DNA from: Leucoraja ocellata
Lineage: Eukaryota
Reading direction: 5' to 3'
DNA length: 64,000 bases
NCBI GenBank assembly: GCA_036785375.1
Contig: JAWMAR010000081.1
Location: 3,100,001 to 3,164,000 of the forward strand
How positions within the stretch are numbered: position 1 is the stretch's first letter; the number at the start of each line of letters is the position of its first letter. The notes beneath the pieces were generated by a model. That model was given only the letters and a program-made list of their open reading frames with translations. It did no database searches and was not told where the DNA came from. Positions 21,055-64,000 of this stretch are shown here, one piece after another. A program made the position numbers and the translations under genes.

Positions 21055-21147
21055 AGACTACAAACACTGTCTCTAAATCAGCACTGAAAAGGAGCAAAAC
21101 AAGAAAAGAAAATGACAAACCAGCAATGAAGCCCTTGACAACTAAAG
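21055..21147 (+). CDS. Exon C (93 nt): (E)TTNTVSKSALKRSKTRKENDKPAMKPLTTK
   Basis: tgtgtgcag acceptor, AAG|GTAAT donor, symmetric phase 1, open. Confidence 0.7.
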
Positions 21148-23214: not shown

Positions 23215-23283
23215 AATCCAAGCTGTCATCCTCAGCCACTCCATCCTTCCCACCAAAACCTATGCTTAATTCTGATAGAACAG
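23215..23283 (+). CDS. Exon R1 (69 nt): (E)SKLSSSATPSFPPKPMLNSDRT
   Basis: attacag acceptor, CAG|GTAAG donor, symmetric phase 1. Confidence 0.75.
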
Positions 23284-23312
23284 GTAAGCCATCAATATTT
23301 TTCAGATTCCTA

Positions 23313-23317
<5 letters not shown>

Positions 23318-23356
<39 letters not shown>

Positions 23357-23413
23357 CTATTCTATGAAGATTATTGGTTAAATTGGTTAAATAGTATGTT
23401 CTTCTATTGTATG

Positions 23414-23478
<65 letters not shown>
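23318..23478. repeat. Two (TA)n microsatellites (about 23318-23353 and 23420-23478)
   Basis: Direct dinucleotide runs. Confidence 0.95.
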
Positions 23479-23480
<2 letters not shown>

Positions 23481-24590
23481 AGACAGAAGTAAAACAAACA
23501 TCTCTGAATATTTAGAATAATTCCAAATCATTTATATGGACATTTTAGTTTGAAGTAACTTGTCTACTATGTCTTCAGACTATGAACTCGTAATTAAAGA
23601 AACTTCCACTACATGCACAAAGGCACAAATAAAGAAATGCATAGCACTGAAATGAAGATATTATCTGCTTTTCCTCATTTACATTGTTCCAATAGTTCTC
23701 AAGAGACATGATCCAATTTATTTGAACTTATTAATATGTGCAATGCAGTGCCTTTGAGGTCGTTAACCTTTGGCTGTGTAGCATGTATTTCATGAATATA
23801 ACTGCAATCCTGTCTGGATCTTGCAGAAAGAAATTAATCACTGTGAAGTTATTAATTTGCCAGAGCACAAGACTTAATTGTATTAATTGAGTGCCTCGTT
23901 CTCATTGTCTGTGAATGTTTGAAGCAAAAATCATTTTGCTCCGTTGTTTTAGCATGGTAATTTGATACTTGCATGAAGTGAAACATTTTAGACAACACCC
24001 TGTAACGTCTGGCTGAATAATCTGTTTCTTAATAGCTGTGAAGTTGTAACTGTTCATCATCCTTGTACTTAGACTGACATCACAAATGGCTAACAAAAGA
24101 AAATATTTCTCTGTGTTCCTTCTGCAATCTTATTTTTCAGTGTGCTTCGTAGTGCATTTTGGAACCATATTTTATATTTGGCTTTGTAGTGATATTTGCT
24201 TGAGGCTCACATTTTGGTTGTCGCACGTTTTCATGTTTTACCATAATGCCAACAAACTTTTAACATTAATATAGTTTGGTTGCCGGTTGCATTCTATCAA
24301 AGGGATATGGAATGGCACCTTGCAGAGATATATACGTCATCATGTATTGCTGCATGGCATGGTATAGTAACGTCGTGTTTATGCAATGCCATGTAACAGA
24401 ACTCATCATTATATTTTGCGATTGGATTGCTATGATTCCTTTAATAACTAAAGGTTTTGTTCTCATTGTTATGGCCGACCAAGGTGATTGTGCATGCATT
24501 ATGCTCAAACTTTGTTTCATTGGAAAGTATTGACATTACAAGGAATTGTTATCTTCAATAACTTTACGTTTTTTTCTGCAAAAATTACAG

Positions 24591-24659
24591 AAATTCAGTT
24601 CCCAGTTTTCCTCACTCCAAGCGCAGCTTCTGAACATGATACCATGGATGAATTCACAG
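24591..24659 (+). CDS. Exon R2 (69 nt): (E)IQFPVFLTPSAASEHDTMDEFT
   Basis: attacag acceptor, ACA G|GTAG donor, symmetric phase 1. Confidence 0.75.
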
Positions 24660-25545
24660 GTAGCCCTGTTCATCGGAATAACAAGGAGTGTATTATCTGA
24701 TTAGATAATTCACATTATAAATTGTGAATTATGTCAGGAAATTAATTTTATTAGTGTAAACAGTCTTAATTTTTCTAGGCATTAAGATCTAATCTACCAA
24801 ACTTGGAAATGTAAAATTCTTCGTCTATTATGTATTTCAACGTGAACCAAGTCAGGATTCTTTACCCAAATTACATTTTTTCTTCTTCAGGAAACTATAT
24901 CCAATAACTGAAACTATATGCAATATTTTTCAATCTGCGTGAGGCTGTATTCTGTTCATGTTTTATTTTTCCACATTTTTGTGGACCATTGCTATAGCCT
25001 TTAGCTGAGAGGATGGATGGGTAATTTCTAACAGTGATTACTAAAATGATTTTATGGATTAATTGCAGAGATGTGAGCAAATTCATTATCACCAGTATTA
25101 ATTTACTGTGTGGACAGATTACTGGACTACATTAATTATTTCCATAGGAACCTAACTAGAATGAGAAAGTCTGTAATGTGCAGTAATGTTTGAATCTGCA
25201 TTTTACTATCTCATTAGCTTGCAAGTTGGTGGTTTAAAATATTTGCATCTTTAAATCCTCAATCGTGCATGTGATGTTCTATCAATTACATGGTGTGCTA
25301 CAACTTCCAGTAATGTTCAACATATTTTGGTTAAGCATATGGTCTGATTAGTAAGCTGGAAACTGAATAGACAACATCAGAATGTTGTAAGTTTTCCCAG
25401 AAAACTATTAATAGTACATGGTGTCAATGTGTTTCTCAAGATGCCAATTAGGAAGTAAAATGTATTCTTTATCCCATTTTGATAAAAAAATTTCGTAACT
25501 TGATCAGGAAAATATTTCAACTTAATTTTCTAAAATGCGTTGCAG

Positions 25546-25635
25546 AACCTGAGATGCCATCTTCTACTAAAATGCCATTCAATATATTAAGAACAACTTC
25601 AGACCATACTGATGTGGGCAATCAGGATCTTCCAG
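25546..25635 (+). CDS. Exon R3 (90 nt): (E)PEMPSSTKMPFNILRTTSDHTDVGNQDLP
   Basis: gttgcag acceptor, CCA G|GTAG donor, symmetric phase 1; EPEMP shared with R5. Confidence 0.75.
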
Positions 25636-27857
25636 GTAGTTTCTATGTGCAGGGGTTCTATTTGCATGAAAGGAAACAAACATAATGTAACATATACAGC
25701 TTATTAGTATGAGAATTTCTAATGATTCATATGTTTCATGTCAATGGTCATGATAAGAATCGTTTGAACTATAAAACCTGCTGTGCCTACCACAATGTAT
25801 AATGGTAATTAGGGATGGTTTTCAAAGCCAATTAATCAGTAACAAATAATGTGCTGGATGGGATAACATGTATTAGCCATTGAAAGTTGGCATCTGGGGG
25901 TCGGTGGCTTTGTCTATTGATGGATCAGGACATGGGCTTCGATTATTGGAAGATGGGAGCCTTAGGTACAATGGGTATGGTGTCATTTTTTGGGTATTCA
26001 GTGGGTTGGTAGTCAAGGAGTGGAAAGTAGTGACATAGGTTAATTGGGTAATTGGCTCCCTGGCTGACTAGGAATGTTGATAGGTGGTGGGTAAAGGACC
26101 TTTCTTTGGTGGTGTTCCTGTACAGAGCCCAACTGTGGTGGAAGGAACCAAAAACTCGCTCCAGGAACAATGTGTTATATGTTCTCACATTGTTCTACAG
26201 CAGTTGCCTTGATGTCTCACAGTGAGAACTGCAACGTTTCTGTAATGATGCGAAATGAATCAGAAATAGAAATGTTTAAGAAGGAACTGCAGATGCTGAA
26301 AAATCAAAGGTAGACAAAAATGCTGGAGAAACTCAGCGGGTGAGGCAGCATCTATGGAGCAAAGGAAACCAGAAATAGAAATTGTCACTTTTTCAAGCTT
26401 AACACAAAGTTGGAGTAACTCATTGGGTCAGGCAGCATCTATGGAGGGAATGGATAAGCAACATTGTTCAGACTGAGACTGAAAAAGGGCCCTGACCCAA
26501 AACATTGCCTATCCAGACCCTCCACAAGAGCTGCCTGAACACTGAGTTACTCCAGCATTTGTGTTTTGCCCAAGATTCCGGCATCTGCAGTTCCTTGTGT
26601 CTCCAATGTCACTTTTTGCTTAGAATCATGCCCATATATATTCAAATTGTACTGTAATTGTAATTTTATAATTCCCTGAATTGATGCTTTCTTCATACCA
26701 CAGATTCTGTTCCTAAACACAGCCATTACTAAATGTGTAGCTCTTTCATCGCAGAGCTTATTTGTATAACACCCATATCAAATATTAGATTATATGATAC
26801 TATTAAAATATCAAGGAAGCTGTAGTTGTAATTTTGTGGATGATATAATAAATTGACATTTGGTTTGCCCTGTCCATTGGATGTAAAAGATCCAGTAGGA
26901 ACAGATTTCATGAAGAATAGGGTTAATTCTCCTCATAGCCTTGATAATAATTATCTGGACTGCTATTATTGGGAACAATTCTGGTTATTATCATATTCCC
27001 CCCTCATCATTCTAATTTCCCCAAGTATAGGCCCAGTCATCAAATGCTCCTCATATGTTAGCTCAATCAACCCTAGGATCATTCAAATAAACATCCTCTG
27101 AAGCCTCTCCAACACCAGCATATTCTTCCTCGGATATGGGACCCTAAACTGTTCACAATATCCCAAATATGGTCTGCTTTAAAAAGCTTTAGCATTATAT
27201 CCTTACTTTAATATTCTAGTTCTCTCAAAATGAATGCTAACATTGCATTTGCCTTCCTTACTACTGACTCAACCTGCAAATTAATCTCCTCTCATTAATA
27301 AAATCGCAAAGGGCCTACTTGAGTATTGTAAGAGCAGTAATTATTATTGTTTTCCAGAATAAGGCATTTGATGGAATAGTTTTAACCAATCATCATTGGG
27401 ATATTAGTATTCTCTACCTAGTTTGATACGTATCTCGTAACAATTTTTGAAATATCAAGTAATTTGATGCACATCATATGTTGACAATTCAATCCAGAAG
27501 CTGACAGCTAATGAAATTATGTTCAAGCATACACCTGCCTTTCGCAGAGGTCGATGTCAGCACTTTTTTTAAATATTGAGTAAGCCACTATTTAGCATTT
27601 ATATGTGAAGAATGTTGAAAGAAGAATACGTTGAAATGCATTGATGCATTTTTGATACTTCATTTTGAATTACTACACGTTCTCAAAATAATTGATTTCA
27701 AAACTAACCACTTTATTAGGGGATGTTAGTTGTCCCATCATAAATGTTGTTATTTGAGTCAACTTTATTTTTATTATGATGTTGGATATGATTTATTTTT
27801 GCAGTGATATTTTATTTAAATATTCAAAATATTTGTTCTTTTCCACATATCATCCAG

Positions 27858-27947
27858 AAATTGAGTTGCCATCCTCCAGCAATTCATTTTTAAACCCTCC
27901 AGACACTCCATCTGCATTAGATTCCATGGGAACAAAGCAGTTCACAG
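27858..27947 (+). CDS. Exon R4 (90 nt): (E)IELPSSSNSFLNPPDTPSALDSMGTKQFT
   Basis: catccag acceptor, TTC ACA G|GTAG donor, symmetric phase 1. Confidence 0.8.
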
Positions 27948-29513
27948 GTAGTTACATGGATATGAGATTTTTCTTGGACAGCTGCAGCAAGTTGCATGTA
28001 ATTGGTTATGAGACGTGGCGTGTCCATTCTAATGCTTTCTTAGCTTTAATATACAAGTTCATGATTTCATGGTCTTGAGTGTTTTGACACCTGATACATT
28101 GCATGACCAATGCAAAAATACTCTGATTGTGTTTAAAAGTAATCTAATGGAATGTTTGGAATTGATAAATAACAGTTTGGTTGTCTAACGTTTAATCAGT
28201 TCACCTGCATGATGTGCAGTACATGGTCAATAAAACCTGGCATGGAAATGAGAAATACAGACGCAACAAATTTGATGGAATATTTTAAGAAATGTATTGG
28301 ACAATACGAGAACTATACTGCTTGATCCATTTCAGAGATATAAATTTGTGCCTCTAGTTTGCTTTTTAACTCTTTCCATACCAAGAGATTATTTCACCAT
28401 TTGGTGGACAGGTAATATGTATCTAGGTCTGAACCAGAGGTGTTTGATGCATCTTCAAAAGGCACAAAAACGACCTCCTATTAAGCCACTCTTCCCTTTC
28501 AGAAAATTGATTAGCTTCCATTTCCACTGTGAATTTAAACCATTGAAAAGGATATGATAATGAGTCTACGTCTGCACATACAAAATTAGAAAAGAGCTGC
28601 CAGACCATCAGCATGGCCTAAACTCGTGATGGCTGGAATCTTGGATTTGTGGCATCCTCTTTCACTTCCACTGCTTCTACAATACAAATAGAGAAAAAAT
28701 GGCCAATAGAAGAACAATTACTCTGCTTTCTGCCAGAAAGCAATATTCCAGTTTCACAGATCATGACATTAAAGGGCTCTTCTACAGGATACAATTCTGC
28801 TTTTTCAACAGAGCTGAAGTGAGTCAGTGCCTACTACATTAATGAGCATTAGCTTCCAGAAACTAGGAAAAGAAGAATTGCATAACATCCAGTCTATTCC
28901 TGTTTGCGCAGAGTTTACGTCCACGTCCCTTAGTGTTTGTTAAATTGCAGCATTCTAACAATAGGTATGCTATGTAATTTAATAGACTTGTTAGGTCATC
29001 TCATTCAAAAAATGATTGCAAAAAATTGTTTGGATCCCAAATGTAAACAAGAAAAACATGAATTATCAGCCATTTGGTTTATGGTATACCACCAAAACAT
29101 TCAGTTTTATATATTCATTTATATATTTTATGTATTAATATATGAATATATATGCTTATATGCCATATATTAATACCGATATTATTCACTGATATTATGT
29201 AGTGACTCCATATCTAGAACAAGACTTTTGACTTTCTAAATGCATTCTATTTAACCGGGAGAAGTCATTCCGAATAGCGTTCCTACGTCTTTTGCAGAAA
29301 TAATAATTATTTTATTCCACTTCAATTATTTTTACTTGAATTCTCATTTCAAATACCATGTTATGTAACCACAGAGAAAATGATTACCTTTCTGATTTCA
29401 CACCTATTAATCTGTACCAGCCCACTGCATTGCCAAGCTGCTTCTACCATAGTTGTCCTACATCAGATAATGTGGATGATCACAGTGTTTGTTTTCTCTG
29501 AAATAAATTACAG

Positions 29514-29594
29514 AACCTGAGATGCCACCTACAAGCAGTAAACTTTTCGATCCAACATCTGAACCTGATGACATGGATACACAAACATTCACAG
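29514..29594 (+). CDS. Exon R5 (81 nt): (E)PEMPPTSSKLFDPTSEPDDMDTQTFT
   Basis: attacag acceptor, TTC ACA G|GTAG donor, symmetric phase 1. Confidence 0.8.
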
Positions 29595-30282
29595 GTAGCT
29601 CAGTGATGCATAAAAAAATTGTGATGTATTTTACAATATACTGCATGCATTATATTTCACCTTTCAACAGCATCATTTTTGTCATCTACATCTGCATTTG
29701 TATACATAATAGTTTTCAATGAGAGCATGTTGGGGTTTTTTCCAGTTACTTAGTCGGATTTGGGGCTGTTTGCATGATAGGTATTTGTACTTTTCTCAAA
29801 AAAAATTATTGGTCCACAAACTGGACTGAAATGTACTGATTTATTGCTACATTTCATGATGGTTTTTTTCCACATTTAATTTATTCCAAAAACTATAAAT
29901 TGCACAAACCATATTTACAATCTTTTTTTAACAATCTGTATAAATCCTCCCTTTCTATCCTACTCCCAATTCTCACCTGCATTACTTTTGAAAATTGTCG
30001 ATAAGTTCATATTCATTTTCATGCAAGTTCTTTTGAACAGTTCTTTGGAAGACACAGAAGGAAACTTGGCTGATTTTCAGTTTCTCATTTTACGCCACTC
30101 ATATGTTTAACTCAGAATTGCACTGCTTGAAAAAATTGTGGACTATGCTTTTGTTGCTTGTATATTAATGCAATAGTGTGTTGTATTCGAAGCTATTTAT
30201 CATCTTGCCCATCACAAATAGTAGAACCTGAGGTGAAGTTCACTGCATTCAGAGTTCTGTTTCAGATATCCTTTTCAAGTAC

Positions 30283-30984
30283 AGGGCCTGTCGCACTTAC
30301 GTGTCCTTGGCATGCAAATGACGCAACCCCCGTCATCGCATTGAGGCGCACGGGCATCGTATGGCCGCGCGGGGCCGGTCCCACTGAGAAGCGCGGATGG
30401 GTATGTAGTTGTGTGTGACATCGCGCGGGGCTCCGAAATTTTTATAGTGAATGAAAGCAAAATCTTCACGCGCCAACGGCCTGACGCGTAACTGACGGCC
30501 AAAGTGGGACTGGCCCAAGACCCTGGCGCGACGCAATGTCTTGCCTCCAACAGCAGCAGAAGCAGGCAAACGATCGCCAAACTCGGCCTGGGGCTGACGG
30601 CTATTGCGGTCTGGATCCGCCCCCACTTCTACACTCAGAGCGGGGCCAAGAATATTGAAGATGGACACAAAATGCAGGAGTAACTCAGCGGGACTGGCAG
30701 CATCTCTGAAGAGATGCAATGGGTGATGTTTTGGGTCAAGACCCTTCTTTTCAGACTGAAGAAGAGTCTCGACACGAAACATCACCCATTGCTTCTCTCC
30801 AGAGATGCTGCCAGTCCCGCTGAGTTACTCCAGCTTTGTGTCCATCTTCAAATGACGCCACATGCTCCAGATGGCTGTGCGTACGCATGAAATCGCACGC
30901 GACCTTCGTGGGACCGTCGCGGCTCAACGCGACCACAAGGTCGCGTAATTTGCATGCCAAGGACACGTAAGTGGGACAGGCCCT
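30283..30984. mobile_element. PIF/Harbinger-like MITE
   Basis: TIRs agggcctgtcgcacttacgtgtccttggcatgcaaat / atttgcatgccaaggacacgtaagtgggacaggccct; flanks tac / taa (degenerate 3-bp TWA TSD); related partial copy at 39309-39480. Confidence 0.8.
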
Positions 30985-32791
30985 TAAGGATGTGTAAGTT
31001 TCATTTCTATCTTATAATAATTTCAAACATTTGGAGCTTTTGAACAAGGACTCAACACATTTTGTTGTTAAAGCTCAGTAATGGTCCAAATGCGACTTCT
31101 TCAGCATCTAGTTTGTAGTCCTTTAACCATAAAAAATAGGTAATTTCTCATAATCTACTTGCTATTGCATGAAAGCTGCACAAGAGGAAATAAGTTAGTA
31201 AGGTAAGTAAATTCAATTAAGTAATGTATTCTTTTACTAGTGTACGCTTTGCTTTTAAGCTTTAGGAGGATATCAATGATATTCCAATATGTATTTCAAG
31301 AATATCATTGAAATCCTCCTAAAGTATCCTCCTAAAGCAGAGTATTTCTTCTTTCGCTTTCCTCAAGACATTGTTTACTAGCTAATCTACAATCCTTTGT
31401 TCTGGCATTTGGGCTTTTGAAGAAAGTAGAACACAAGATAAATCCAGAAAATGCCAAGACATATTTAGTAGGTATGGAGAGTAAAATAAAATAAATATTT
31501 TGTTTAAATGAGTGTGAGGAACAGCATTTACATATATCAACTTCTGTGAAGGTCTATTGCTGTCTTCCAGACTCAACACTGAGTTCGACAATTTCAGATA
31601 ATCACTCCTCCTGCATATGTACTCTGATTTCCAACATTTCCGCGGATTTCATATTCATTCCACATCATTATTCTAAATTTCTACGTCCTTCAAGCTTTTG
31701 CTATCATTTATCACCCCTTTTGTCATACAATTTCTCCTGCCTTTCATCCTGTCACTGTCTTGCTTTTTTGTTCCTTCCTCCCCTTGTGTCTGCATTTTAA
31801 AACTTTTTTAACTGTAGCCCTAGTCCTATGAAGGATTTTTTTTTTACCTCAACCATTGACTGACTGTTTCTTTCTATATAAATGCTGCCTGATATGTAAT
31901 TTCCAGCATTCTACTGCTTTTATTTCAGGTTTCGAGCATAAGCCATGTCCTTGCTTTTGCATTGCAATATAAGCATTATTTCTTACTATTCTGATGGTCA
32001 TTCAATTACTTCCATTGTTTTGGAGCCAAACTGTGTCGTTGTTTCAACTTTCATCATCCGTGCCATTCCTGTATCCTCCTTGTGCAGACTATGTTAGAAG
32101 AATTATTGTGGAATCAGGATCTATTGGGCTTCCTTGTCCCAAAAAAACCTTAGTGTCAGTGAGGATAGATGAGGACCAACCAACAAGAAGCGAGGATAGA
32201 GGAAGGAGAATACAGAATAATTTGGAGGGGAAGGAGCAACATGATGTAAGGGAGGAAAGGCTGTGCATGTTTGAACTGATATGTCAGAGGATAAAGATGC
32301 CAGTTCGAATTGAAAAGGGAAAGGATCACCATGAATTGAGCACAGGACAAAAATATATCCATGTATGTAGCCTATTACCATGTCTATTCGAGATTTTCCA
32401 ATAGCTATAAGAACCGTGGCGAGCACTGCATGAATGCAACTATTCCATCTTAACGTTATTCTGCACGTTGTCACTTTTATTAGTTTAGTTAACTTGTTTG
32501 ACAGTGCAAAGTGCACGCATGTCTCGTGTTATACATTTATGTTTAATTTCCTTATTAGAGAAGGAAAATTTGTCAACTTCCTACTCATTTTGCTGAACTC
32601 AGACTTACTTTGCAGAACAGTTGTTGGCTTCAGACCTCTTCCTGTCACTCCTTTTGTGCAGTTTGTGTGGATTTCAGTCTGTGGGATTGATATGTGCTGT
32701 ATATCTATGTCTTCTTTAAAACAATGCATTTGATTTTTACCTTTGTTTACAAATTGTCAGTTTTATTTGGTTTCTCTGAAATGCATTACAG

Positions 32792-32872
32792 AGCCTAAAA
32801 TACGATACTCCAGCACCTCCTCTCTCAATCCAGTTCCTGAATCAGTTACTATGGACACGGAGATATTCACAG
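32792..32872 (+). CDS. Exon R6 (81 nt): (E)PKIRYSSTSSLNPVPESVTMDTEIFT
   Basis: cattacag acceptor, TTC ACA G|GTAG donor, symmetric phase 1. Confidence 0.8.
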
Positions 32873-33323
32873 GTAGTTTGACAATGGCTGTTATATAACT
32901 GCCTTTTTGAAAGAATAGGCTGCATTTCTTTAAAAAGAAGTGTACTTTACCTTGGAATGCTTTAATGTCAATATGTTGTAATATGCAAAGTAAGTGAAGA
33001 TAGTGTTGCAAAGCGTATTTTATGATCTAGCATCCATAAAGAATTATTCATCTTGCATCAAAGTTAATATTATATTTGCTAGACCTGTTTTTCATGATGA
33101 ATGACAACTTATGCCTGCAAGTCAATTATTGTCTTTGATCAAACAATATGGGCATTAAACTTTATCTGGAATATATTTTACATAGGACAAACTGAATAAG
33201 TTTGAGGGTCTTTTAGATATAATTATTTATGTGCTTGGATATTCTTCCATTGAAACTACTGTGGCATCTTATAATATTTGAAATTACAGGCATTTTTCTT
33301 TGTTTCTATGAATGATATTACAG

Positions 33324-33407
33324 AGCTTCCATCCAGTACTAGTTCATTTTCGTCCAGTTCAGATATGGTTTCCAAACCTGATGTCGTGCACACAGAGTGG
33401 TTCACAG
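33324..33407 (+). CDS. Exon R7 (84 nt): (E)LPSSTSSFSSSSDMVSKPDVVHTEWFT
   Basis: attacag acceptor, TTC ACA G|GTAG donor, symmetric phase 1. Confidence 0.8.
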
Positions 33408-34073
33408 GTAGATTATTGACTAGAGCATGTTGCGCTGTGTTGCTGTATGTGCTGAATTCAGCATATCCATTGTGCACCTCATATATTTAAATACATAAGT
33501 GATGAGTACAATATTGTATTAGTCACCAGTAGTCATCCATGTCATGTGAGCATGTTCCAGCAAAAAGTATGTTGTCTGGTTGATGGCTTTTTCTCAATGT
33601 AGCCAAGAATTGGTTTGCTTTTGCAAAGTGCGCAAGTCAGCAAACAGCATGCAAATGAGCACTGATAAGCAACATAATTCAATTATATGTCAAATCTACC
33701 TTGCTTGGGCACGACACATTATTTAAAATCAAAGTGAATCATTGCTTGGAAAGTCCACGTTTTTGTCTACGTTGTGTCTTGTCCGGCTGGTTACTTCCAC
33801 TTCGCAGATTATTTTGTGTATTTTTTTAATTTTTGTGCCTTCTGCTTTAATCACAGAACTAGTGTAAATGATTTTATATGCAGCATGGATTTCATGCATT
33901 GTACTTTATTGGTATAGTTGCTATATGGTTTCTAATCTAACATTTAGTCTGTCTACAATTTGCATGAATTGTGCTCTTTGGCGTTTGAAGCATTTCAGTG
34001 GACTTTGAGGATGATGAAGGAAAAAAAATCAAATCCGTTAAAAAGGTGTTTTATTCCATTTGGTAAAAAACAA

Positions 34074-34157
34074 AGTATGAGGAACCATCCTCCAGTGGTG
34101 CATTTTACATCTATTCACCCACAACCTCAGCACCTGATAATGTGAAACAATTCACAG
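34074..34157 (+). pseudogene. Dead repeat exon (84 nt): (E)YEEPSSSGAFYIYSPTTSAPDNVKQFT
   Basis: Open frame ending TTC ACA G, but donor reads ATAGTT instead of GTAGTT and the acceptor position reads CAA. Confidence 0.7.
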
Positions 34158-35214
34158 ATAGTTAGTGCATATGAGATAGATATATCTATTATCAATAACA
34201 ATAATGTGTTGCTCAATATCAACAATATGTACTATAGTTACATGTGGGAGACTTCAATGACCATCATCAGTAGCAGCACGGTATTATCACCATAGACTGA
34301 GATGGCAGAATCCTGAAGTTCAGAGCTCTGGACTGGATAGCCAGTAAGCAGCAATTGAACCAATACAAGGGATAAGTCTGTACAATCACATCCTTACCAG
34401 TGTACCTATTGTAAATGCATCAGTTGATGACAGCGCTGGTACAAGTGACCAATGTGCAGTTCTTGTGTAGCCTAAGTCTTGGCTTGATACTGAGTGCATT
34501 ACCATCATGTTACGTTGTTCTCCAATGTTGCTAAATAATACTGACTCTGAATCGGTCTGGCAATTCAGTATCATGAGGTGAGGTAGACTGTTAGCGGCAG
34601 CAGATATGTACATTACCACATTTACCTGCCAGTTACGGTTAGCTTAACTTTCATTCTACTGTTGCAATCAAGCTGAGGATCAACCCTAGTTAAATTAGGG
34701 GTGCAGGCGGAGAGCGGCATTTGTTGCCCAAAAAAGTGAGATGGTAAACTTATGAAGCTGCAGCAGAAGACAACATGTATGCTAAACATAACATGCAACA
34801 GTCTGAACCAACCAGTACATCAGATTACAACTCTGCTGTCCAGACATATCCGGTCATGATTGGTGGTGGTCAATTCAACAGCTAAGAGCAGGAGGAGGCT
34901 CCAAAAACATTTATATCCTCCGGATTGGATTGGCCAGGCCCAACACATAAATGCCGAAGACGAGACTGAATGGTGGAAAGATGGAATGAAAAATGAGTCG
35001 GCAAAGTCATTGTCATCCTGTTGAAAGCTATTCAATATTTACGAGAGAATGCTGCAAGGATTGAGTAAAAGAATCATATTAATTGTTGGAAATAACAGAA
35101 ACATCTGTTGTGGGACATCCTTAGCTAAAGTTCCAAACCAAATGTTGTAGAAGTTTTTGCATCAGCCATTCTAAGGAGAAAATGTCTGTAGAGGGAAACT
35201 TGATGGAGTCTTGC

Positions 35215-35760
35215 AGTGCAGTTTTTGTCTCCTAATCTGAGGAAAGACATTCTTGCGGTAGAGGGAGTACAGAGAAGGTTCACCAGACTGATTCCTGGTA
35301 TGTCAGGACTTTCATATGAAGAAAGATTGGATAGACTCGGCTTGTACTCGCTAGAATTTAGAAGATTGAGGGGGGATCTTATAGAAACTTACAAAATTCT
35401 TAAGGGGTTGGACAGGCTGGATGCAGGAAGATTGTTCCCGATGTTGGGGAAGTCCAGAACAAGGAGTCACAGCTTAAGGATAAGGGGGAAATTTTTTGGG
35501 ACTGAGATGAGAAAAACATTTTTCACACAGAGAGTGGTGAATCTCTGGAATTCTCTGCCACAGGTAGTTGAGGCCAGTTTATTGGCTATATTTCAGAGGG
35601 AGTTAGATGTAGTCCTTGTGGCTAAAGAGATCAGGCGGTATGGATAGAAGGCAGGTACAGGATACCGAGTTGGATGATCAGCCATGATCATATTGAATGG
35701 CGGTGCAGGCTCGAAGGGCCAAATAGCCTACTCCTGCACCTATTTTCTATGTTTCTATGG
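35215..35760 (+). mobile_element. CR1 LINE 3' fragment
   Basis: ORF 35216..35647 (LSYEERLDRLGLYSLEFRRLRGDLIETYKI..FTQRVVNLWNSLP); tttctatg tail. Confidence 0.95.
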
Positions 35761-36907
35761 ACATTGAATGTCATTAAAGTAGTTAATTACGAATTTAAAA
35801 AAGTAATTTGCTTAGGTATTTTATTCCTGTCATATCATTGACTTAACAGTTGGAAGATCAGGAGTTGTAAATCCCTGTGTCTGTTGTTTGGCATTGTGTT
35901 TGATGAAGTTAATAATGGCAAGTATAACATTGGTGTCCAGCAATATAAATAAGCTATAACAAAGCATACATTATTTTAATTTATCATTTTAGATATTTAT
36001 TTGATTCATTTTGACTGAGTGAACAGTGACAGTGAATAGCTTCAATATTGCATTTGTTCAGCCAGTTGGTATGGTAAATATCTCAGGTACTTCGCAAGAG
36101 TGTATGAAACAAAATCTTCAAACATCAGTGGCCTTTATATTGGTTAATCAGAGATATCTTGCTTGTGATTGGGAACTAAACTTGACCATTCTTTGTGTGA
36201 CATTAATTTCCTTTAAATTCCCATTTCCTCAAGTTATGAAATTATGACCTGTGCCTTACGAATAGTTGTGATAATTAATTTTACTTTGGAATGAATATTG
36301 TAGTGAAAGCTGTACATATCCACTATTTGTATCAAATGTGATATTTTCACAAATTTTAAAGTACATCACTGTAAAACACTCGGGTTTGCCTGAAATGCAC
36401 TGCATTGGACCAAATACTTCAAATGAGAAAATATTGTAAATAAATAGTATTTCTAAAATTAATTTTCATTCTTTCCCGAATCATCTTACCCTGATAACAT
36501 TTTATAGACATTTAGAGAAAGTCCATCACTTAGTCATTTTATTATGATGTTTTTGAAAGGCACATCAAAGAATTCTGTTAAGAATGTGCATTAATTAAAG
36601 TATAACCACTTTCACACAGTCAGATCTATTTTTAAAACCATACATCTGTTTCCTCTTCAGCATTAATAATTCTGTGGTCTGTTGATGCATAATTACAAAT
36701 GTATTAAAGATTGAATAGAATAGAGTTTTGCGCACTATGAAAAAACAAAATATCTAAATGACATAGGAAAGTTGAATGAATGGAATAGTTCAGCTACATT
36801 CTTGGTGTTTGTGGTTTGCAGGCATGAGGGGTTGCAAGGTATACTTCTGCACCTATTTTCTTATGTTCATATCACGGAGTTTGCTCTTTGTTTTGACCAA
36901 ATTGCAG

Positions 36908-36997
36908 AACGTGTGGTTGAGCCCACCGCCAATTCATTTTTCACCACCTCAAATACAATTTATGAATTTGATTCTCCACAACGGGAGCAGATTTCAG
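36908..36997 (+). CDS. Exon R8 (90 nt): (E)RVVEPTANSFFTTSNTIYEFDSPQREQIS
   Basis: attgcag acceptor, TCA G|GTAG donor, symmetric phase 1. Confidence 0.75.
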
Positions 36998-37476
36998 GTA
37001 GTATGTAGATAAGTTATGGCATGGATGCACACTTCCTTGTCCTGTTCACCACTTGAATGCAAACACATTATCTATGTGCTTTCTTGCTCTTGAAAGATGG
37101 AAAGTGGCAAAATACATCAATAAGCCAATATACAATCACGCAGTGCAATACATTAGAAATAGTTTGGTAAGCAAATCTACATATTTTAGCTTTAGAATCT
37201 AGCTTTAGTCAGGTATCAATGTATCAATGACAATTTGCATGAATCAAATTATTAAGTGAACAATTTGCATGGAGGTATAATTTAAATACATCAGATTACT
37301 TCAGAGTACTGCTTAGCTTGATCAATGTATTCCATCATGCTTGGCCACTGCTCTGCATATATTTATATGGTTTTGAATTTGGAATGCTATAAATGTTCAC
37401 ATCTTATTTGATACCATGCAAAACAGTCCAGTTGGTAAAATACATGCTTTATTTGTATTCTCTGAATAAGTTCCAG

Positions 37477-37563
37477 AATTTGGGAAACCATTCTTGAGCA
37501 GTTCGCCTGTCAACTCTTTAGAATCATCTAAAAATGATGCAGTGGAACCAAAACAATCCACAG
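37477..37563 (+). CDS. Exon R9 (87 nt): (E)FGKPFLSSSPVNSLESSKNDAVEPKQST
   Basis: gttccag acceptor, ACA G|GTAT donor, symmetric phase 1. Confidence 0.75.
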
Positions 37564-38993
37564 GTATTCTCAACGAGAAACTTGAATTAGCCTTGATTTG
37601 TTTCAATGTGTTAATTCCATCATTTTATTCACATATATAAATGTCATTGTTATTGTCAGTTTCATTTTCTCACCTGAAATGAAAAATCAGAAGGTCCGAA
37701 TGACCAGTAAGAAATTTGCATCCTTAAACGTAGAAAATGTGATTGACCAGCAGTCAGTTAGAGTATTTGCATAAAATAGATTCCTAATCAGTAGAATTTT
37801 GTTTGGAGTGAAGTAAATCAATACGCTCATGAAACTATAGCTCACAGGTACTTAAACATGTGTACTTTGTTGCTCCTAAATAGCGCATTATTCTGAGGAT
37901 TCATTCTACACATTTGGTGGTAGAACATTGTTCAATATACCTTGGATCATTTGGATTATTTTGGTTGGAAAGAATTTCTGAGATGTATATCCCGAAATTG
38001 GTTTAAGTATTCATCTCCCTTATCTCCCTCTTGTGGGAGATGACTTTTGAGATGGAGTCATGATTTGCAGATAAAGTGCAGAATCGATGAGCTGATCTTT
38101 TCGTATCCTATGTTCTCATATATTTGCTTGTTACCTGAAAGCACTGTTTGGTGAAGTGCTCTGTATCGATGTACATTTTTAAACATTATATTTAGTCGGC
38201 ATTCAGAACCATTTTGACTTCTGAGTGCAGTAATGATGGAGTGTATTGGAACTAGCTGAACATGATTTGGATTATGAGAAAAAAAACCCTTTAGAAATGA
38301 AAATAATAGTGTACAAAAGCATGAAAAGAACAAAATACACAAATGGCCTTATCATTAGTTGTGATTATTATTTCTTGCTTACCACTTTAGTTCATTGATT
38401 GACTTGTTTCTTTGCTACTCTTCTAATGCTGGCTTTCACCAAAATTTGTTTTGTTGACTTAAGATCTTGAGCCGCTGCTTTCTTTTACCATTAACTACAT
38501 GTTTGTGCTGAAAATCAGTATTTGGTAAAACATAAGAACAAAAGAACTAAAAACAGGTTAGGGTAATTGGACCTTCACATGCACTCAGCCATTCAAAAGA
38601 TCATGGCTGATCTTCATTTTAGCACCACTTTTATATGCTTTATATATAAACCTCTATCAACTCCTGTTTTTAGTGTACAAGTATGAGAACCTCCTCAACC
38701 CGCCTAGCTCAAATTCCAACAAGTGGAAATCCCCAGACTGGAAAGCTACATGTTCTGCCTCTGCCTATGTACTGCTATTCTACATTAGCAGTACATAGAC
38801 TTAGCAACCCAGATGTGATCATCTCCCCATCTATCTTGTCACGTCATGTGAGAATTTTGCATATTGTGCCGAACATGATGTCAAGTTAAACTAATCTTAT
38901 CTGCCTGCTCATAATCCATATCCCTCCATATCCCTGACATAAGGTATCAAATGGCCAACCTGCTTCTTTTCCTTGTATTCTTAAGTTCTAGAA

Positions 38994-39210
38994 CAGGGGT
39001 TCCCAACCTTTTTCGTCCCGTTTACACCTGGCAACTTTAATAGCACATAACAATGTTATTTCACTTATTTATGAACAACTAATGATGAACAGATACCGGT
39101 ATACCAGAACCAAACACAGTCAGTCAATGAGAAAATATATGTACAAATCGAGAGAATAAACAAATTTACCCCCTGGGTAGGAAACATTTACCCCAGGTTG
39201 GGAACCCTTG
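38994..39210. mobile_element. hAT (Charlie-like) MITE, 217 bp
   Basis: TIRs caggggttcccaacct / aggttgggaacccttg; perfect 8-bp TSD ttctagaa at 38986-38993 and 39211-39218. Confidence 0.9.
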
Positions 39211-40103
39211 TTCTAGAACATTCACAGCATTGTGGGAGTAGCTTCACTAGAAGGTATGCAGCAGTTCAGGAAGACCGCTCACCGCCACCAGGAAATTAGG
39301 TTGTGTAAAGGGCCTGTCCTATTTACGCAATTTTTTCGCCGACTGCCAGCACCCGTCATTGTCGCAGCAGGTCGCTGAAAATTTTCAATGTGTTGAAAAT
39401 CCAGTGGCGACCAGAAAAAGGTACGACTATTTGGGCGATTACTCATGACCATACAGGCGTCACCCCGCGACATGTCTGGAAAGAATGGTGGAACAACCAT
39501 GTGCCACACTAATGTGCTGGGAGAAAATGTCACTGTTGATAGGAAAATCTAATGTTCATCTGGGACTGCCAGAACATCTATCAATGGAAAGTGAAATCAT
39601 CCTTGAATGTAAGCTTGAGCAAATCTATTCAAATGTGCAAAGTATTTCTGAAATTATAACTGAACTATCATTAAGAGATGATCTGCTATAGAACCTGGTG
39701 AATTTAAAGAGAAAATATATCCCGAGTGAAGGGCACTTGTCTTGTCAATGAAGATGTTTTGTTGGGTAAGTGTAGTAATTATTAGATCATATGGTAATAT
39801 ATTTAAGGTTTCCTACATAACCGTGGCAGTTAGATTAAAAAGACGTGTTAGAAGAAATGTTTGTGAGCCAGAGGAATTTTCACTGCTAACTTGGACAAAA
39901 TAAATTCCCAAGTCTAAAATGGTTCAAGTTCCTCTTTATTTTTGCTGTCAACAACAAAACATAAATGCTTATCTTTTTCCTTCAGACCTTTTTTGATTGA
40001 TAAACACTGTTGGCCATACGACAAGGTGTGGGTTCCTTTTGGAAAAATGTTAATTCATTTTCTGAATCCAAGAATTTTATATTTTTTCCAATGCACATGC
40101 TAG

Positions 40104-40187
40104 AATCATCATTCACCACAAGTAAAGCCTTCATCACTTCAAATCCAATTACTGATGCAGACAACAAAGTTCAACAGCCATTTGCAG
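40104..40187 (+). CDS. Exon R10 (84 nt): (E)SSFTTSKAFITSNPITDADNKVQQPFA
   Basis: atgctag acceptor, GCA G|GTAA donor, symmetric phase 1. Confidence 0.75.
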
Positions 40188-40779
40188 GTAATTTTAATTT
40201 TAAACACAGCAAAAAATACCTAACTTTTGTTTAAAGATAAATTGTTGGCATCTCTTAACATTGGGAAAACACAAACCATGCAACTTATCTCTTCCTTTGC
40301 TGGTTATCTTTCCAAATTTATAATATGTAGTAAACATGATACTCAAAGTTTAGATTGGCACAGGAAAGGACAAGGAGCTTGCCAGCTTACTTATTCGGAG
40401 GACACCCAATTTTAAATAATTTTAAAAACAGACTTGTCAAATTGGGGTCAAATATTTGAGAACATGTAGTTCTGCCTAAAATGCACGAGTTTCCATTGTG
40501 CTAAATGGATATAATGTGTTTGAGAAATTGGGGAAGACTATTTGTATTATGTGGGCTGAATAGGTTATCCCATGTAGTTATTCAAAAAGACCTTTATTTT
40601 CCGAAAATCCTGCAGGAAAATAATTTTGTTATTAAGGGTCTGAAATTTTCTGGGCCTAAATCCTCTATTCCCTATTAACACATTTGTTTTCTTAACATGA
40701 TTTTCTATAACGTGAGGTTTCTTAGATATGCAGCTATAGCATCATAGCAGAACTACCTGTACCATAGTAACAATCTCGA

Positions 40780-44765: not shown

Positions 44766-44874
44766 GCGTCACCAACTTAGGTACCTTGATGCTAAAACTC
44801 CAATGTTTCAAGATTTTCCTTATATCTTTATGGTTGATTGTTTCCTTTAACTTATCTTCATTCTAGATATTAGT

Positions 44875-45215: not shown

Positions 45216-45291
45216 AAAATGCACTTTTATCAGTATCAGTGCTGCTATACTGCATAATTGGAAAATTGCATTTAATATTTTTGTTATCTAG

Positions 45292-45366
45292 ATTATGCAC
45301 TACTAGATTCTGACACTCCGATTACTGTGTATGAAGTTAATAACCCTGAAGAGAAAGAATCCACAG
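45292..45366 (+). CDS. Exon R11 (75 nt): (D)YALLDSDTPITVYEVNNPEEKEST
   Basis: tttttgttatctag acceptor, ACA G|GTAT donor, symmetric phase 1. Confidence 0.75.
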
Positions 45367-59505: not shown

Positions 59506-59649
59506 AAGACCATGAATTGTCAACTTCTCACACAACTAAAGTGTTCACTTTAATATCTGGCCATGAGCGGCAAGCCACAGACATTCCCAGTGTGATCAAT
59601 CCAATCCCAGATACTGATCCTGCTAAGATAGGAGAGGCAGAATTTACAG
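59506..59649 (+). CDS. Exon R17 (144 nt): (E)DHELSTSHTTKVFTLISGHERQATDIPSVINPIPDTDPAKIGEAEFT
   Basis: cttcctttttatccttag acceptor (TAG/AAG tandem), ACA G|GTAG donor. Confidence 0.85.
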
Positions 59650-60129
59650 GTAGTCCTAACAATCTGTGTATTCTATGTTTGAAGTAAACAATAGAGTAAA
59701 TAATTAAAAGTGTATGCTTAGGTTTATCACAATTAAGGAAAAAAATCTGGACACGTGCCACAGATGCTATGTTATGCTTTTAAATTAATATTTATGTTAA
59801 TATTTGAATTGGTTGTGTATAAGGCATGGAAGAGCCTGGAAACACAGACATGCTGTGCCCTTAGATGTCTGTCCTTAACTTGCTTCATCATTGTTGGCAA
59901 CAATGTGAGTGATTGCTGCAAGGAAAAAACAGGCGGTATTGAACTGATGGGATCCCTCTGTTAGGTTCTCATATAATTCCCATGGGCTAGTGGAGTTGTT
60001 CCATACTCTATAAATAATTAACTAATGGTAGTGTTCAATGTGCTAATAAACATAGGAAACTACTCGGTGTCAGGTGCACGTTTAGAAGATATTTAGAATT
60101 TTGTAATTTGACTTCCTTTTTATCCTTAG

Positions 60130-60273
60130 AAGACCATGAATTGTCAACTTCTCACACAACTAAAGTGTTCACATTAATATCTGGCTATGAACGGCAAGCT
60201 ACAGACATTCCCAGTGTGATCAATCCAATCCCAGAACTTGATCCTGCTAAGATAGGAGAGGCAGATGTTACAG
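60130..60273 (+). CDS. Exon R18 (144 nt): (E)DHELSTSHTTKVFTLISGYERQATDIPSVINPIPELDPAKIGEADVT
   Basis: Same splice signals as R17, open frame. Confidence 0.85.
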
Positions 60274-60743
60274 GTAGTTCTAACAATCTGTGTATTTTAT
60301 GTTTGAATTAAGCAATGGAGCAAATAATTAAAAATGCATGTTTAGGTTTATCACAATTAAGGGAAATAGTCTGCACACGTGCCACAGATGCCATACTAGG
60401 CTTTTACGTGAAAATTTGTATTGGTTGTGTGTAAGGCATGGAAGAAGCTGGAAAACACAAACATACTGTACACTTAGATGTCTGTCCTTAATTTGCTTCT
60501 TCTTTGCTGGCGACAATGTGAGTGAGTGTTGCAGGGAAATAAGAGGCGGTATGGAATTGATGGGTTCGCTCTGTTAGGTTCCCATATAATTCCAATGGGC
60601 TGGATGGCTTTGTTCCGTACTGTATTAAATAATTAACCAATGTAGTGTTCAATGTGCTAATGTACATAGGAAACTACTAAGCATCAGGTGTACGTTTACA
60701 AGATATTTAGAATTTTGTAACTCGGCTTCCTTTTTATCCTTAG

Positions 60744-60887
60744 AAGACCATGAATTGTCAACTTCTCACACAACTAAACTGTTCACTTTAATATCTGGCT
60801 ATGAACGGCAAGCCACAGACATTCCCAGTGTGATCAATCCAATCCCCGAATCCGATCGTACTAAGATAGTCGAGGCAGATGTTACAG
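60744..60887 (+). CDS. Exon R19 (144 nt): (E)DHELSTSHTTKLFTLISGYERQATDIPSVINPIPESDRTKIVEADVT
   Basis: Same splice signals as R17, open frame; not in the ORF track. Confidence 0.85.
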
Positions 60888-61365
60888 GTAGTTCTAACAT
60901 TCTGTGTATTTTATGTTTGACGTAAGCATGGAGCAAATAATTAAAAGTGCATGCTTATGTTTATCACAATTAAGGAAAAAAGTCTGGACACGTGCCACAG
61001 TTGCCATGTTATGCTTTTACATGAATATTTATATGAATATTTGTATTGGTTGTGTGTAAGCCCATGGAAGAGCCTGGAAAACACAAACATACTGTACACT
61101 TATGGTCTTTCCTTAACTTGCTTCGTCATTGTTGGTGACAATGTGACTGAGTGTTGCAAGGAAATAAGAGGGGGTATGGGACTGATGGGATCGCTCTATT
61201 ATGTTCTCGTATCATTCAAATGAGCTGGATGAGTTTGTTCCGTATTGTATTAAATAATTATGTAATGGTAGTGTTCAATGTGCTGATATACATAGGAAAC
61301 TACTTGGCGCAAGTGTATGTTCAGAAGATATTTAGACATTGGTAATTTGGCTTTTTTATCCTTAG

Positions 61366-61509
61366 AAGACCATGAATTATCAACTTCTCACACAACTAAA
61401 GTGTTCACTTTAATATCTGGCTATGAACGGCAAGCCACAGACATTCCCAGTGTGATCAATCCAATCCCAGAACCTGATCCTACTAATATGGGAGATACAG
61501 ATATTACAG
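61366..61509 (+). CDS. Exon R20 (144 nt): (E)DHELSTSHTTKVFTLISGYERQATDIPSVINPIPEPDPTNMGDTDIT
   Basis: Same splice signals as R17, open frame. Confidence 0.85.
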
Positions 61510-61781
61510 GTAGTTCTAACAATCTGTGTATTTTATGTTTGAAGTAAACAATGAAGCAAATAATTACAAATGCATGCTTAGGTTTATCACAATTAAGGAA
61601 AACAGTCTGGACATGTGCCACAGATGCCAGGTATGCTTTTACATGCATATTTATGTGAATATTTGTAATGGTTATGTGTAAGTTATGGAAGTGCCTGGAA
61701 AACACAAACATACTCAACACACAAATATCTTTCCTTAATTTGCTTCTTCGTTGTTGGCGACGATGTGAGAGAGTGTTGCAA

Positions 61782-63332
61782 CGAACAGTTACTTTGGATT
61801 GGATCCGTCTTCACTCAGGAGGACACAAACAATCTTCCTGATGTACTAGTGGCCAGAGGATCTAGGGTGACGGAGGAACTGAAGGAAATTCACATTAGGC
61901 AGAAAATGGTGTTGGGTAGACTGATGGGACGGAAGTTGATAAATCCCCAAGGCCTGATGCTTTACATCCCAGGGTACCTAACAAAGTGGCTCTAGAAATC
62001 ATGGACGCTTTGGTGATCATTTTCCAATGTTCGAAAGATTCAGGATCAGTTCCTGTGGGTTGGAGGGTAGCTAATGTTATCCCACTTTTTAAGAAAGGAG
62101 GGAAAGAGAAAACAGGGAATTATAGGCTAGTTAGCCTGTCATCGGTGGTGGGGAAGATGCTGGTGTCAATTATAAAAGATGAAATAGGGGCACATTTGAA
62201 TAGCGGTATCAGAATAGGTCCAAGTCAGCATGGAATTACAAAGGGGAAATCACCTTGACTAATCTTCTGGAAATTTCTGAGGATGTAGCTGGGAAAATGG
62301 ACAAGGGAGAGCCAGTGGATGTAGTGTACATGGACTTTCAGAAAGCATTTGATAAGGTCCCACATAGGAGATTAGAGGGCAAAATTAGATCACATGGTAT
62401 AAGGGTAGAGTGCTGACATGGATAGAAAATTGGTTAGCAGGCAGGAAACAAAGAGTAGGGATTGACGGGTCCCTTTCAGAATGGTGACTAATGGTGTACC
62501 GTAAGGCTCGGTCCTGGGACCGCAGCTATTTACAATATATATTAATGATTTGATGAAGGGATTGAAAGTAACATTAGCAAATTTGCAGATGACACAAAGC
62601 TGGGTGGCACTGTGAACGGTGAGGAGGATGATATGAGGATGCAGGGTGACTTGGACAATTTGGGTGAGTGGGCAGATGCATGGGAGATGCAGTTTAATGT
62701 GGATAAATGTGAGATTATCCACATCAGTGGCAAAAACAGGAAGGCAGATTACTATATAAATGGTGACAAGTTGGAAAAAGGGTAAGTACAGTGGGATCTG
62801 GGGAGTCCTTGTTCATCAGTCACTGAAAGTAAGCATGCAGGTACAGCAGGCAGTGAAGAAAGCGAATTACATGTTGGCCTTCATAACAAGAGGAGTTGAA
62901 CATTGGAGCAAAGAGGTCCTTCTGCAGTTGTACAGGGCCCTAGTGAGACCACACCTGGAGTATTATGTGCAGTTTTGGTCTCCAAATTTGAGGAAGGACA
63001 TTCTTGCTATTGAGGGAGTGCAATGGTTCACAAGGTTAATTCCTGGGATGACAAGAATAGGGGCTAAGCCATTTAGAATGGAGATGAGGAAATACCTTTT
63101 CACACAGAGAGTTGTGAGTCTATGGAATTCTCTGCCTCAGAGGGTGGTGGAGGCCGGTTCTCTGGATGCTTTCAAGAGAGAGCTAGATAGGGCTCTTGAA
63201 AATAGCGGAGTCAAGAGATATGGGGAGAAGGCAGGAACGGGGTACTGATTGGGGATGATCAGCCATGATCACATTGAATGGCGGTGCTGGCTCGAAGGGC
63301 CGAATGGCCTACTCCTGCACCTATTGTCTATT
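61782..63332 (+). mobile_element. 5'-truncated CR1 LINE inserted in one tandem unit
   Basis: GSVFTQED, WRVANVIPLFKKG..GNYRLVSL, YMDFQKAFDKVPH, KFADDTK, LVRPHLEY, FTQRVVSLWNSLP; ctattgt tail. Confidence 0.95.
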
Positions 63333-63454
63333 GTATTAAATAATAAAGTAATGATAATGTTCAACATGCTAATATACATAGGAAACTACTTAATGACGGT
63401 GTACATTCAGAAGATGTTTAGAATTTTGTAATTTGGCTTCCTTTTTATCCTTAG

Positions 63455-63598
63455 AAGACCATGAATTGTCAACTTCTCACACAACTAAAGTGTTCTCTTT
63501 TATATCTGGCTATGAACGGCAAGCCACAGACATTCCCAGTGTGACTAATCCAATCCCAGAACCCGATCCTACTAACGCAGGAGAGGCAGAATTTACAG
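63455..63598 (+). CDS. Exon R21 (144 nt): (E)DHELSTSHTTKVFSFISGYERQATDIPSVTNPIPEPDPTNAGEAEFT
   Basis: Same splice signals as R17, open frame. Confidence 0.85.
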
Positions 63599-64000
63599 GT
63601 AGTTCTAACAATATGTGTATTCTATATTTGAAATAAGCAATGGAGTAAATAATTGAAAGTGCATGCTTAGGTTCATCACAATTAAGGAAAAACGTCTGGA
63701 CAGGTGCCACAGTTGCCATACTAGGCCTTTATGTGAATATTTGTTTTGGTTATGTGTAAGGCATGGAAGAGCATGCAAAGCACAGCATACTGTACACTTA
63801 GCTGTCTTTCCTTAACTTGCTTCATCATTGTTGGCAACAATGTGAGAGAGCGTTGGAAGAAAATAAGAGGCGGTATGAAACTGATGAGATTGCTCTGTTT
63901 GGTTCTCATATAATTCTAATGAGCTGGATGACTTTGTTCCTTACTGTATTAAAAAAATTAAGTAATGATTATTTACAATGTGCTAATATTCATAGGAAAC

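Follow-up and report, generated by a model that had tools for sequence, protein, structure and literature searches.

Mid-array growth of repeats and turnover of ABI3BP exons in mammals are both known. Protein repeat arrays expand in mid-array, several units at once (Bjorklund et al. 2006, PMC1553488). Alpha-satellite arrays have been described as discrete, chronologically ordered and partly symmetrical layers with a young homogeneous core (Shepelev et al. 2009, PMC2729386), and the repeats of mucins lie in one large VNTR exon (PMC13345508). ABI3BP has been treated as an extracellular-matrix protein (PMC6426741), and the human gene is reported to have a cluster of 10 mutually exclusive exons that disappeared in the mouse/rat ancestor (PMC5740500). 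Judging by titles and abstract openings, with subscription journals outside the coverage, we found no paper on the skate ABI3BP exon array; the main text of PMC9013439 and that of bioRxiv 10.1101/2023.04.29.538821 do not mention ABI3BP.

The 64,000-nt stretch of Leucoraja ocellata DNA analysed here (the window) holds 21 exons, R1-R21, of an array of ~47. Our main reading, to which we assign a probability of about 0.88, is that a young core lies between older layers and that the array grew from inside, through bursts of tandem exon-plus-intron duplication. Like the arrays of Bjorklund et al., the skate array has internal youngest duplications and a multi-unit (four-exon) duplication; unlike them, its unit is a low-complexity exon with introns rather than a folded domain, and its layers can be dated by orthology. 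It shares with alpha-satellite the partly symmetrical age layers round a young homogeneous core, but it is coding, confined to a single locus of ~47 exons, and lacks centromere function and inter-chromosome transfer; the likeness is one of analogy, not membership. As in mucins, the exons are Pro/Thr/Ser-rich (35% S+T+P), and NCBI labels the little-skate model 'mucin-2'; here, though, there is one repeat per exon, and the array is flanked by FN3 and TARSH_C. Compared with mammalian ABI3BP, the skate unit is a long exon of 47-48 aa with an internal 17-codon repeat, and the predicted skate models join consecutive core exons in one isoform. Ordinary tandem duplication, a process of a known kind, is likely to account for the middle-out pattern with no new mechanism.

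The repeated exons are part of skate ABI3BP (TARSH, Target of Nesh-SH3), a tissue-matrix gene. TARSH_C is present at the C-terminal end (Pfam PF21731, E=1.3e-18; score 68.3 bits, cut-off 27), and both FN3 regions of ray and shark proteins are matched in order at 73-92% (tblastn), flanking the low-complexity spacer; the Pfam fn3 match, on a single 26-aa exon, falls under its cut-off (E=0.078). A conserved exon matches 'target of Nesh-SH3' from rays and sharks at 71-88%, and the exons correspond nearly residue for residue to P0026, an NCBI model for Leucoraja erinacea that carries the label 'mucin-2 isoform X4'. Sawfish ABI3BP matches the C-terminal exons at 72-95% at this locus and at 43-65% at a second locus (C183/C2256), so this locus is nearer to ABI3BP than to the second TARSH_C gene, which we take to be FNDC1. 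The first FN3 exon lies ~6.4 kb upstream of the window start. The same contig carries the exons for residues 1-159, attached to the second array copy; the window's piece begins at a gap. When one 47-aa core exon was searched for homologues, it gave three candidates, none of which scored, and the three repeat exons searched had no Pfam family.

Table 1. Features of the skate ABI3BP exon array; numbers beyond the window are contig (C81) position minus 3,100,000
Feature	Position	Strand	Basis
Upstream ABI3BP exons, basic low-complexity region (n=5)	14651..21161	+	tblastn, collinear with ray ABI3BP; splice scans
Limits of the five upstream exons (approximate)	about 14651-14720, 15144-15227, 17885-17965, 20209-20265, 21057-21161	+	
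R1-R11, old 5' layer, short exons (69-90 nt)	23215..45366	+	shark/ray orthologue matches
R1-R6	23215-23283, 24591-24659, 25546-25635, 27858-27947, 29514-29594, 32792-32872	+	
R7-R11	33324-33407, 36908-36997, 37477-37563, 40104-40187, 45292-45366	+	
Dead short exon, both splice dinucleotides lost	34074..34157	+	sequence, tblastn
R12-R16, 5' middle layer, long exons (117-144 nt)	46649-46765, 51243-51383, 52481-52597, 55875-56012, 56615-56758	+	
Decayed long-type copies in 5' middle layer	near 48340, 51680, 53240, 53900		
R17-R21 = C1-C5, first five young-core copies (144-nt exons)	start 59506, 60130, 60744, 61366, 63455 (59506..63598)	+	
Core intron running past window end	63599..64000	+	
Core copies C6-C17	64069-76071	+	contig sequence
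D1-D6, 3' middle layer, divergent long exons (126-147 nt), R12-R16 intron motifs	76852-87309	+	
E1-E8, old 3' layer, divergent short exons (60-93 nt)	89961-126902	+	
Conserved FN3 and TARSH_C exons	132165-168877	+	Pfam, homologue matches, tblastn

The 21 exons, R1-R21, which lie in 23215-64000 of the window, are all phase-1, preserve the frame, are flanked by AG and GT, and contain no stops. The original prediction had sorted them by length and divergence (R1-R11, 69-90 nt; R12-R16, 117-144 nt; R17-R21, near-identical) and had pointed to donor signatures that change in blocks: GTAG in R2-R8, GTAT or GTAA in R9-R11, GTAC in R12-R16, and GTAG in R17-R21. Both observations are correct (R1 has GTAA, and R17-R21 are 144 nt long), and the blockiness exceeds chance, with 10 identical neighbours against 4.7 in shuffled orders (p=0.0024, core counted once). 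Its description of the introns also held for the two ends of the window: those of R17-R21 can be aligned in full, the units being 84-87% alike, and those of R1-R11 lack obvious homology, the best upstream-intron scores (25-31) sitting at the shuffle ceiling (99th percentile 26, maximum 32). For R12-R16, the splice-proximal motifs it listed are enriched but do not occur in every exon. Sequences like TTAAGAATTTT are found in 3/5 of these exons (background 2.8%), like TTCTTATCCC in 4/5 (1.0%), and like GTACTTCTGACA in 5/5 (3.1%).

The array continues for ~63 kb past the window end on the same contig, and the near-identical 144-nt exon reaches 17 copies, the window ending inside this young block. 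The core unit is ~620 bp; a LINE fragment at ~61800-63330 interrupts the first five copies, and C6 carries an in-frame 30-nt deletion. Along the whole array the order is short, long, core, long, short, and this order recurs in the second locus copy, over the stretch compared, and in models of three skate species.

The layers can be dated by their orthologues: most short exons at both ends have unique shark matches, long exons on both sides pair with stingray and manta units, and the core is multiplied in skate models. Counts here refer to predicted isoforms, which may skip exons, and not to the genomes of those species; the isoforms from sawfish and electric ray are missing the entire middle of the array. 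In one or more shark models, a unique match was found for 9/11 of the 5' short exons (R1-R3, R5-R10) and 6/7 of the 3' short exons (E1-E5, E7), and R12 and R14 also satisfy the unique-match rule in sharks. Unique stingray or manta matches exist for 10/11 of R1-R11, all of which occur in order in skate models. The dead short exon has a coding orthologue in Rhinoraja and stingray models (P0029 residues 525-555). In a tree of 94 long units (46 columns; bootstrap unsettled at 0.966), starred triads, made up of one skate, one stingray and one manta unit, are seen for R13, R15, R16, D4 and D5. All 17 units of the core cluster with a single unit from stingray and a single one from manta (98/88), and D6 with seven stingray/manta copies (98/88), a different long exon having expanded in those two. 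The pairing of D3 with stingray/manta is less firm and unstarred (90/71); R12, R14, D1 and D2 are unplaced, and long units separate weakly into shark and batoid sets (35/80). The stingray and manta models each have one core unit, and skate models have 16, 13, 8 and 11.

Within the core, a four-exon higher-order repeat (C7-C10, C11-C14, C15-C17) is evident, its copies being 95-98% alike over 1.6-1.9 kb, compared to ~85% between monomers. Tandem Repeats Finder misses the array because of its period limit of 500. Core exons have no stops, and 28 exon pairs show no indels, against 1.3-1.8 indels per 100 nt in the flanking introns. Amino-acid constraint was not detected in the core (pN/pS 0.75; 13 synonymous versus 34 nonsynonymous alleles, p=0.61).

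Could the core instead be an old multi-copy block that gene conversion has kept alike, rather than a skate-specific expansion? Its exons are closer to one another (0.087 per site) than are their introns (0.135-0.150), and the last unit, C17, differs between the two locus copies at 9 exon sites, 8/9 of which match C13 in the second copy, a difference that resembles conversion. In addition, types C1, C4, C5, C7, C8, C10 and C13 are shared with Amblyraja, and hence the core is older than that split. Against this stand the single core unit of the stingray and manta protein models, which disagrees with old one-to-one units homogenised by conversion, the full alignability of the core introns, and a copy number and order that vary among skates (the C5 type is present four times in Amblyraja, and the C7-C10 block about three times here). 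We consider this explanation very unlikely.

From the window, the original prediction inferred polarised growth, in which new exons join at the 3' end and position records age. There, likeness to the core indeed increases toward the 3' end (rho -0.79 with distance), and inside the core the youngest duplications, which make up most of C7-C16 and have exons 99-100% alike within type, occupy the 3' two thirds. The inference fails, since the young block runs on past the window end; downstream of the core, which extends to 76071, the order reverses, through long D1-D6 to short E1-E8. All 14 of these older exons sit 3' of the core, most of them have orthologues in rays or sharks, and the order is the same in the second locus copy (stretch compared) and in the three skate species' models. 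Among the 30 non-core exons, resemblance to the core declines with distance to either side (rho -0.79 and -0.79 on protein z; length-controlled, -0.68 and -0.67). With signed order, raw protein z rises weakly (0.38, p=0.04), a trend that vanishes under length control (0.24, p=0.21, not significant). We used shuffle z-scores for this analysis in place of global exon identity, a length-biased measure (shuffled mean 0.60) that gave a misleading positive trend and was dropped. The exons are thus not ordered old-to-young along the gene; a young 17-exon core is flanked by older exons on both sides. The downstream sequence refutes end growth, barring misassembly in every one of these genomes. End growth is scarcely credible here, and a one-sided gradient in a cut array should not be taken as polarity. 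What survives of the proposed duplication record is local duplication that left datable blocks, and the youth of R17-R21.

The symmetry of the layers is only partial. Long layers mirror each other across the core, with shared motifs and many best partners on opposite sides. The short layers are not mirror images (mean z 0.56 for R2-R10 versus E1-E7, compared to 1.39 and 2.79 within layers), and D1-D6 show no outward fall in likeness to the core; the pattern is therefore one of steps rather than a smooth gradient.

The locus is present two times in the scaffold, as disordered pieces linked through 200-N gaps, and near-identical repeats are error-prone in assembly, but the probability that part of the core copy number is an assembly artefact is close to negligible, given an array without internal gap in the window's copy, 17 units in both locus copies, 16 units in the same type order in the Leucoraja model (possibly not an independent assembly), and higher-order copies that differ by 2-4%. 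A segmental duplication was considered for the second, 98-99% alike copy; that copy is more probably the other haplotype, since the stretches that were compared are found twice, breaks fall at 200-N gaps, and a paralogous gene is also present twice.

Growth from inside could have proceeded in three steps. Short exons of ~70-90 nt would have multiplied before the shark/ray split, leaving survivors at both ends. A 51-nt internal duplication in one of them may then have produced the long type, which would have multiplied mid-array, the ray/skate set becoming fixed before the skate/stingray split. In skates, one long exon with ~480 bp of intron would have been amplified, as single units first and as multi-exon blocks later, likely by unequal crossing-over plus some gene conversion. 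With each exon in phase 1 and divisible by three in length, copies leave the frame intact. The predicted effect, judged from sequence, is a spacer of greater length, acidic and probably O-glycosylated and alternatively spliced, that separates the N-terminal FN3 region from the C-terminal FN3/TARSH_C region of what is predicted to be a secreted matrix protein. A broader idea, which we regard as unlikely, is that the central zone of long exons in elasmobranch ABI3BP acts as a standing hotspot, each lineage amplifying a different exon (the core in skates, D6 in stingray and manta, other long units in sharks), under selection for a longer, splice-tunable, glycosylated spacer in a matrix protein; it would be the coding equivalent of layered expansion at centromeres, down to the higher-order repeats. 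The array offers a clean, datable case of growth from within. Its layers can be tied to the splits between sharks and rays, between skates and stingrays, and within skates, and it can be used for testing models of exon duplication and conversion.

Self-similarity at offset 17 was seen in 26/27 shark and 7/12 ray long units, with at most one at each of four other offsets; an offset of 18 was negative in shark long units, and only 17 was positive of the five offsets later tested. In the locus DNA, the internal repeat is significant (p<0.05) in 5/11 long exons. Four RNA or probable-RNA runs over 45100-61800 gave no exon-exon joint among the joints listed, SINE/LINE reads having swamped the signal. 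Exon bins had low depth; one 174-nt read contig covers 59504-59644 with 33 foreign letters ahead, which is suggestive only. In the models, predicted skate isoforms hold 8-16 consecutive core exons.

All 21 exons noted in the window (R1–R11, short and 5'; R12–R16, long and in the middle; R17–R21, near-identical) were recovered by sequence reading together with a scan for phase-1 exons, and the original prediction described them correctly. Exon lengths and donor tetramers agreed for 21/21 exons in the exon table, and donor signatures do fall in blocks, with 10 identical neighbours compared to 4.7 by chance (p = 0.0024). R17–R21 resemble one another introns included, as ~620 bp units 84–87% alike in alignment; R1–R11 lack obvious intron homology, their flank scores lying at the shuffle ceiling; and the three intron motifs attributed to R12–R16 occur in 3/5, 4/5 and 5/5 of these exons, against a background of 1–3%. 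The window also contains a dead exon (34074–34157) that has lost both splice sites and whose orthologue codes in Rhinoraja, stingray and manta models, a GC-rich element (30283–30984) with 72-bp inverted ends (85% alike) around a pair of inverted SINE-like pieces, and a GC-rich minisatellite (13157–13345; five copies of a 38-bp unit, 95% matches).

The further claim, that the array grows at its 3' end and position records age, is refuted. In the skate's own genome, where a search located the window at C81:3100001–3164000, the repeat unit continues past it on the same contig to ~3,176,300, and we added the next 100 kb on the 3' side, carrying on the window's numbering. R17–R21 are the first five of the core copies (C1–C17, with a 144-nt exon), and this core is not at the end of the array, since long exons D1–D6 and then short exons E1–E8 lie 3' of it.

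Array layers beyond R1–R16, in continued window numbering, and pieces of the doubled locus
Feature	Content	Coordinates	Pieces
Core	17 copies	59506–76071	
D1–D6	six divergent long exons, 126–147 nt	76852–87309	
E1–E8	eight short exons, 60–93 nt	89961–126902	
Doubled ABI3BP pieces		G000:C81:2690001-2900000 + 3373607-3427672	L011–L020, L041–L060

For the exons outside the core (n = 30), resemblance to it fell with distance equally on the 5' side (rho −0.79) and the 3' side (rho −0.79), and with length controlled the values were −0.68 and −0.67. Signed order showed no significant association with likeness to the core when length was controlled (0.24, p = 0.21). The three R12–R16 motifs recur in 2/6, 5/6 and 6/6 of D1–D6, and in 0/8, 2/8 and 1/8 of E1–E8. 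The short layers on the two sides are not mirror images of each other, and the pattern around the core is stepwise and only partly symmetrical. Nested, middle-out layering of the array is well supported, with a probability that we put at nearly 0.9. The middle layers also hold six decayed long-type copies (window ~48340, 51680, 53240 and 53900; outside it, contig pieces L002 ~4230 and L003 ~2030), and the copy in L002 carries a GC donor, with stingray and manta models containing a counterpart that codes.

The gene holding the array is ABI3BP/TARSH (target of Nesh-SH3). One exon downstream of the array matches Pfam TARSH_C, another matches proteins named 'target of Nesh-SH3' from rays and sharks, and tblastn with three orthologues places both FN3 regions and the C-terminus around the array in order. 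An NCBI little-skate model (P0026) follows the locus exons in the same order and nearly residue for residue (67/67 in one conserved exon), omitting R13, R14, C6 and E2 and using an inner acceptor in D1. P0026 is labelled 'mucin-2' and a horn-shark model (P0015) 'fibronectin type III domain-containing protein 1-like' by NCBI; both look like ABI3BP orthologues.

The ABI3BP region is present twice on C81 at about 97–99% identity, as pieces of mixed order and orientation between 200-N gaps. The second copy agrees with the first in exon order between R1 and E2 and in its number of core units (17), and most likely represents the other haplotype. Like this locus, a paralogous TARSH_C gene is doubled (contigs C183 and C2256). 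The doubled loci are probably uncollapsed haplotypes, which would raise copy counts artificially in this assembly.

Layers were dated by orthologues in predicted isoforms rather than genomes, a match counting as unique if, in one or more models, its score reached 50 and was no less than 1.3 times that of the runner-up. Unique shark matches were found for 9/11 short exons on the 5' side and 6/7 on the 3' side (E8 left out), and for 2/5 and 0/6 of the long exons, respectively. We also built a tree from 94 long units, 28 belonging to the locus and 66 to six species, after discarding 31 profile hits that were short or weak. In it, R13, R15, R16, D4 and D5 each fall in a starred triad with a unit from stingray and another from manta, the 17 core copies cluster with one unit per ray species, and D6 clusters with three copies from stingray and four from manta; D3 lacks a star, R12, R14, D1 and D2 lack placement, and bootstrap values are unsettled. 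Based on these groupings, the long exons flanking the core, 5' and 3' alike, are likely older than the split between skates and stingrays. The core itself is likely an expansion within skates, stingrays having expanded a different exon. Predicted isoforms of other skates carry 13 and 8 core units (two from Amblyraja) and 11 (Rhinoraja). Amblyraja and this locus have core unit types in common, differently arranged; Rhinoraja core units cluster by species (5 changes versus 9.6 shuffled).

All exons are in phase 1 and have lengths that are multiples of three, so the reading frame survives duplication or skipping. Long exons contain a 17-codon repeat (offset 17 was positive in 26/27 shark and 7/12 ray units, and each of four other offsets in at most one), and some retain an AG acceptor 90–93 nt before their end; given both features, the long type probably arose from a short exon. 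Unequal crossing-over favours the internal, most homogeneous part of an array. Within the core we see single-unit duplications, ~85% alike, and a four-exon block in about three repeats, 95–98% alike; the block duplication would be the later. At the last core unit, nine exon sites differ between the two locus copies and 8/9 match C13 of the other copy, which suggests recent exchange. LINE reverse-transcriptase fragments break the core in both copies (window ~61800–63330; L001 ~880–2590), and these could date the earliest core duplications. About 2 kb within the core is present in only one copy (L001:8493–10000 and L002:1–545).

Middle-out growth is of a known kind, and this array is an additional case. 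Repeat regions are reported to expand mid-array, several units per event (PMC1553488), and the ABI3BP array likewise probably expanded inside, including by a multi-unit block; alpha satellite is reported to form age layers around a young core (PMC2729386; cited by PMC7463522), as here, with symmetry partial in both. ABI3BP is treated as a matrix protein whose function is unclear (PMC6426741), and the human gene is reported to have a ten-exon cluster lost in mouse and rat (PMC5740500). Among the papers listed by a literature search, judged on titles and the openings of abstracts, none is on this array.

Core exons contain no stops. No indels were seen in them across 28 pairs (8/17 units), compared to 1.3–1.8 per 100 nt in introns; C6, outside this set, carries an in-frame deletion. 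Amino-acid constraint in the core was not detected (p = 0.61), and RNA reads on the array showed no splicing among the joints listed. The product is predicted to be an acidic spacer of considerable length, in which Ser, Thr and Pro make up 35%, and would likely be O-glycosylated.
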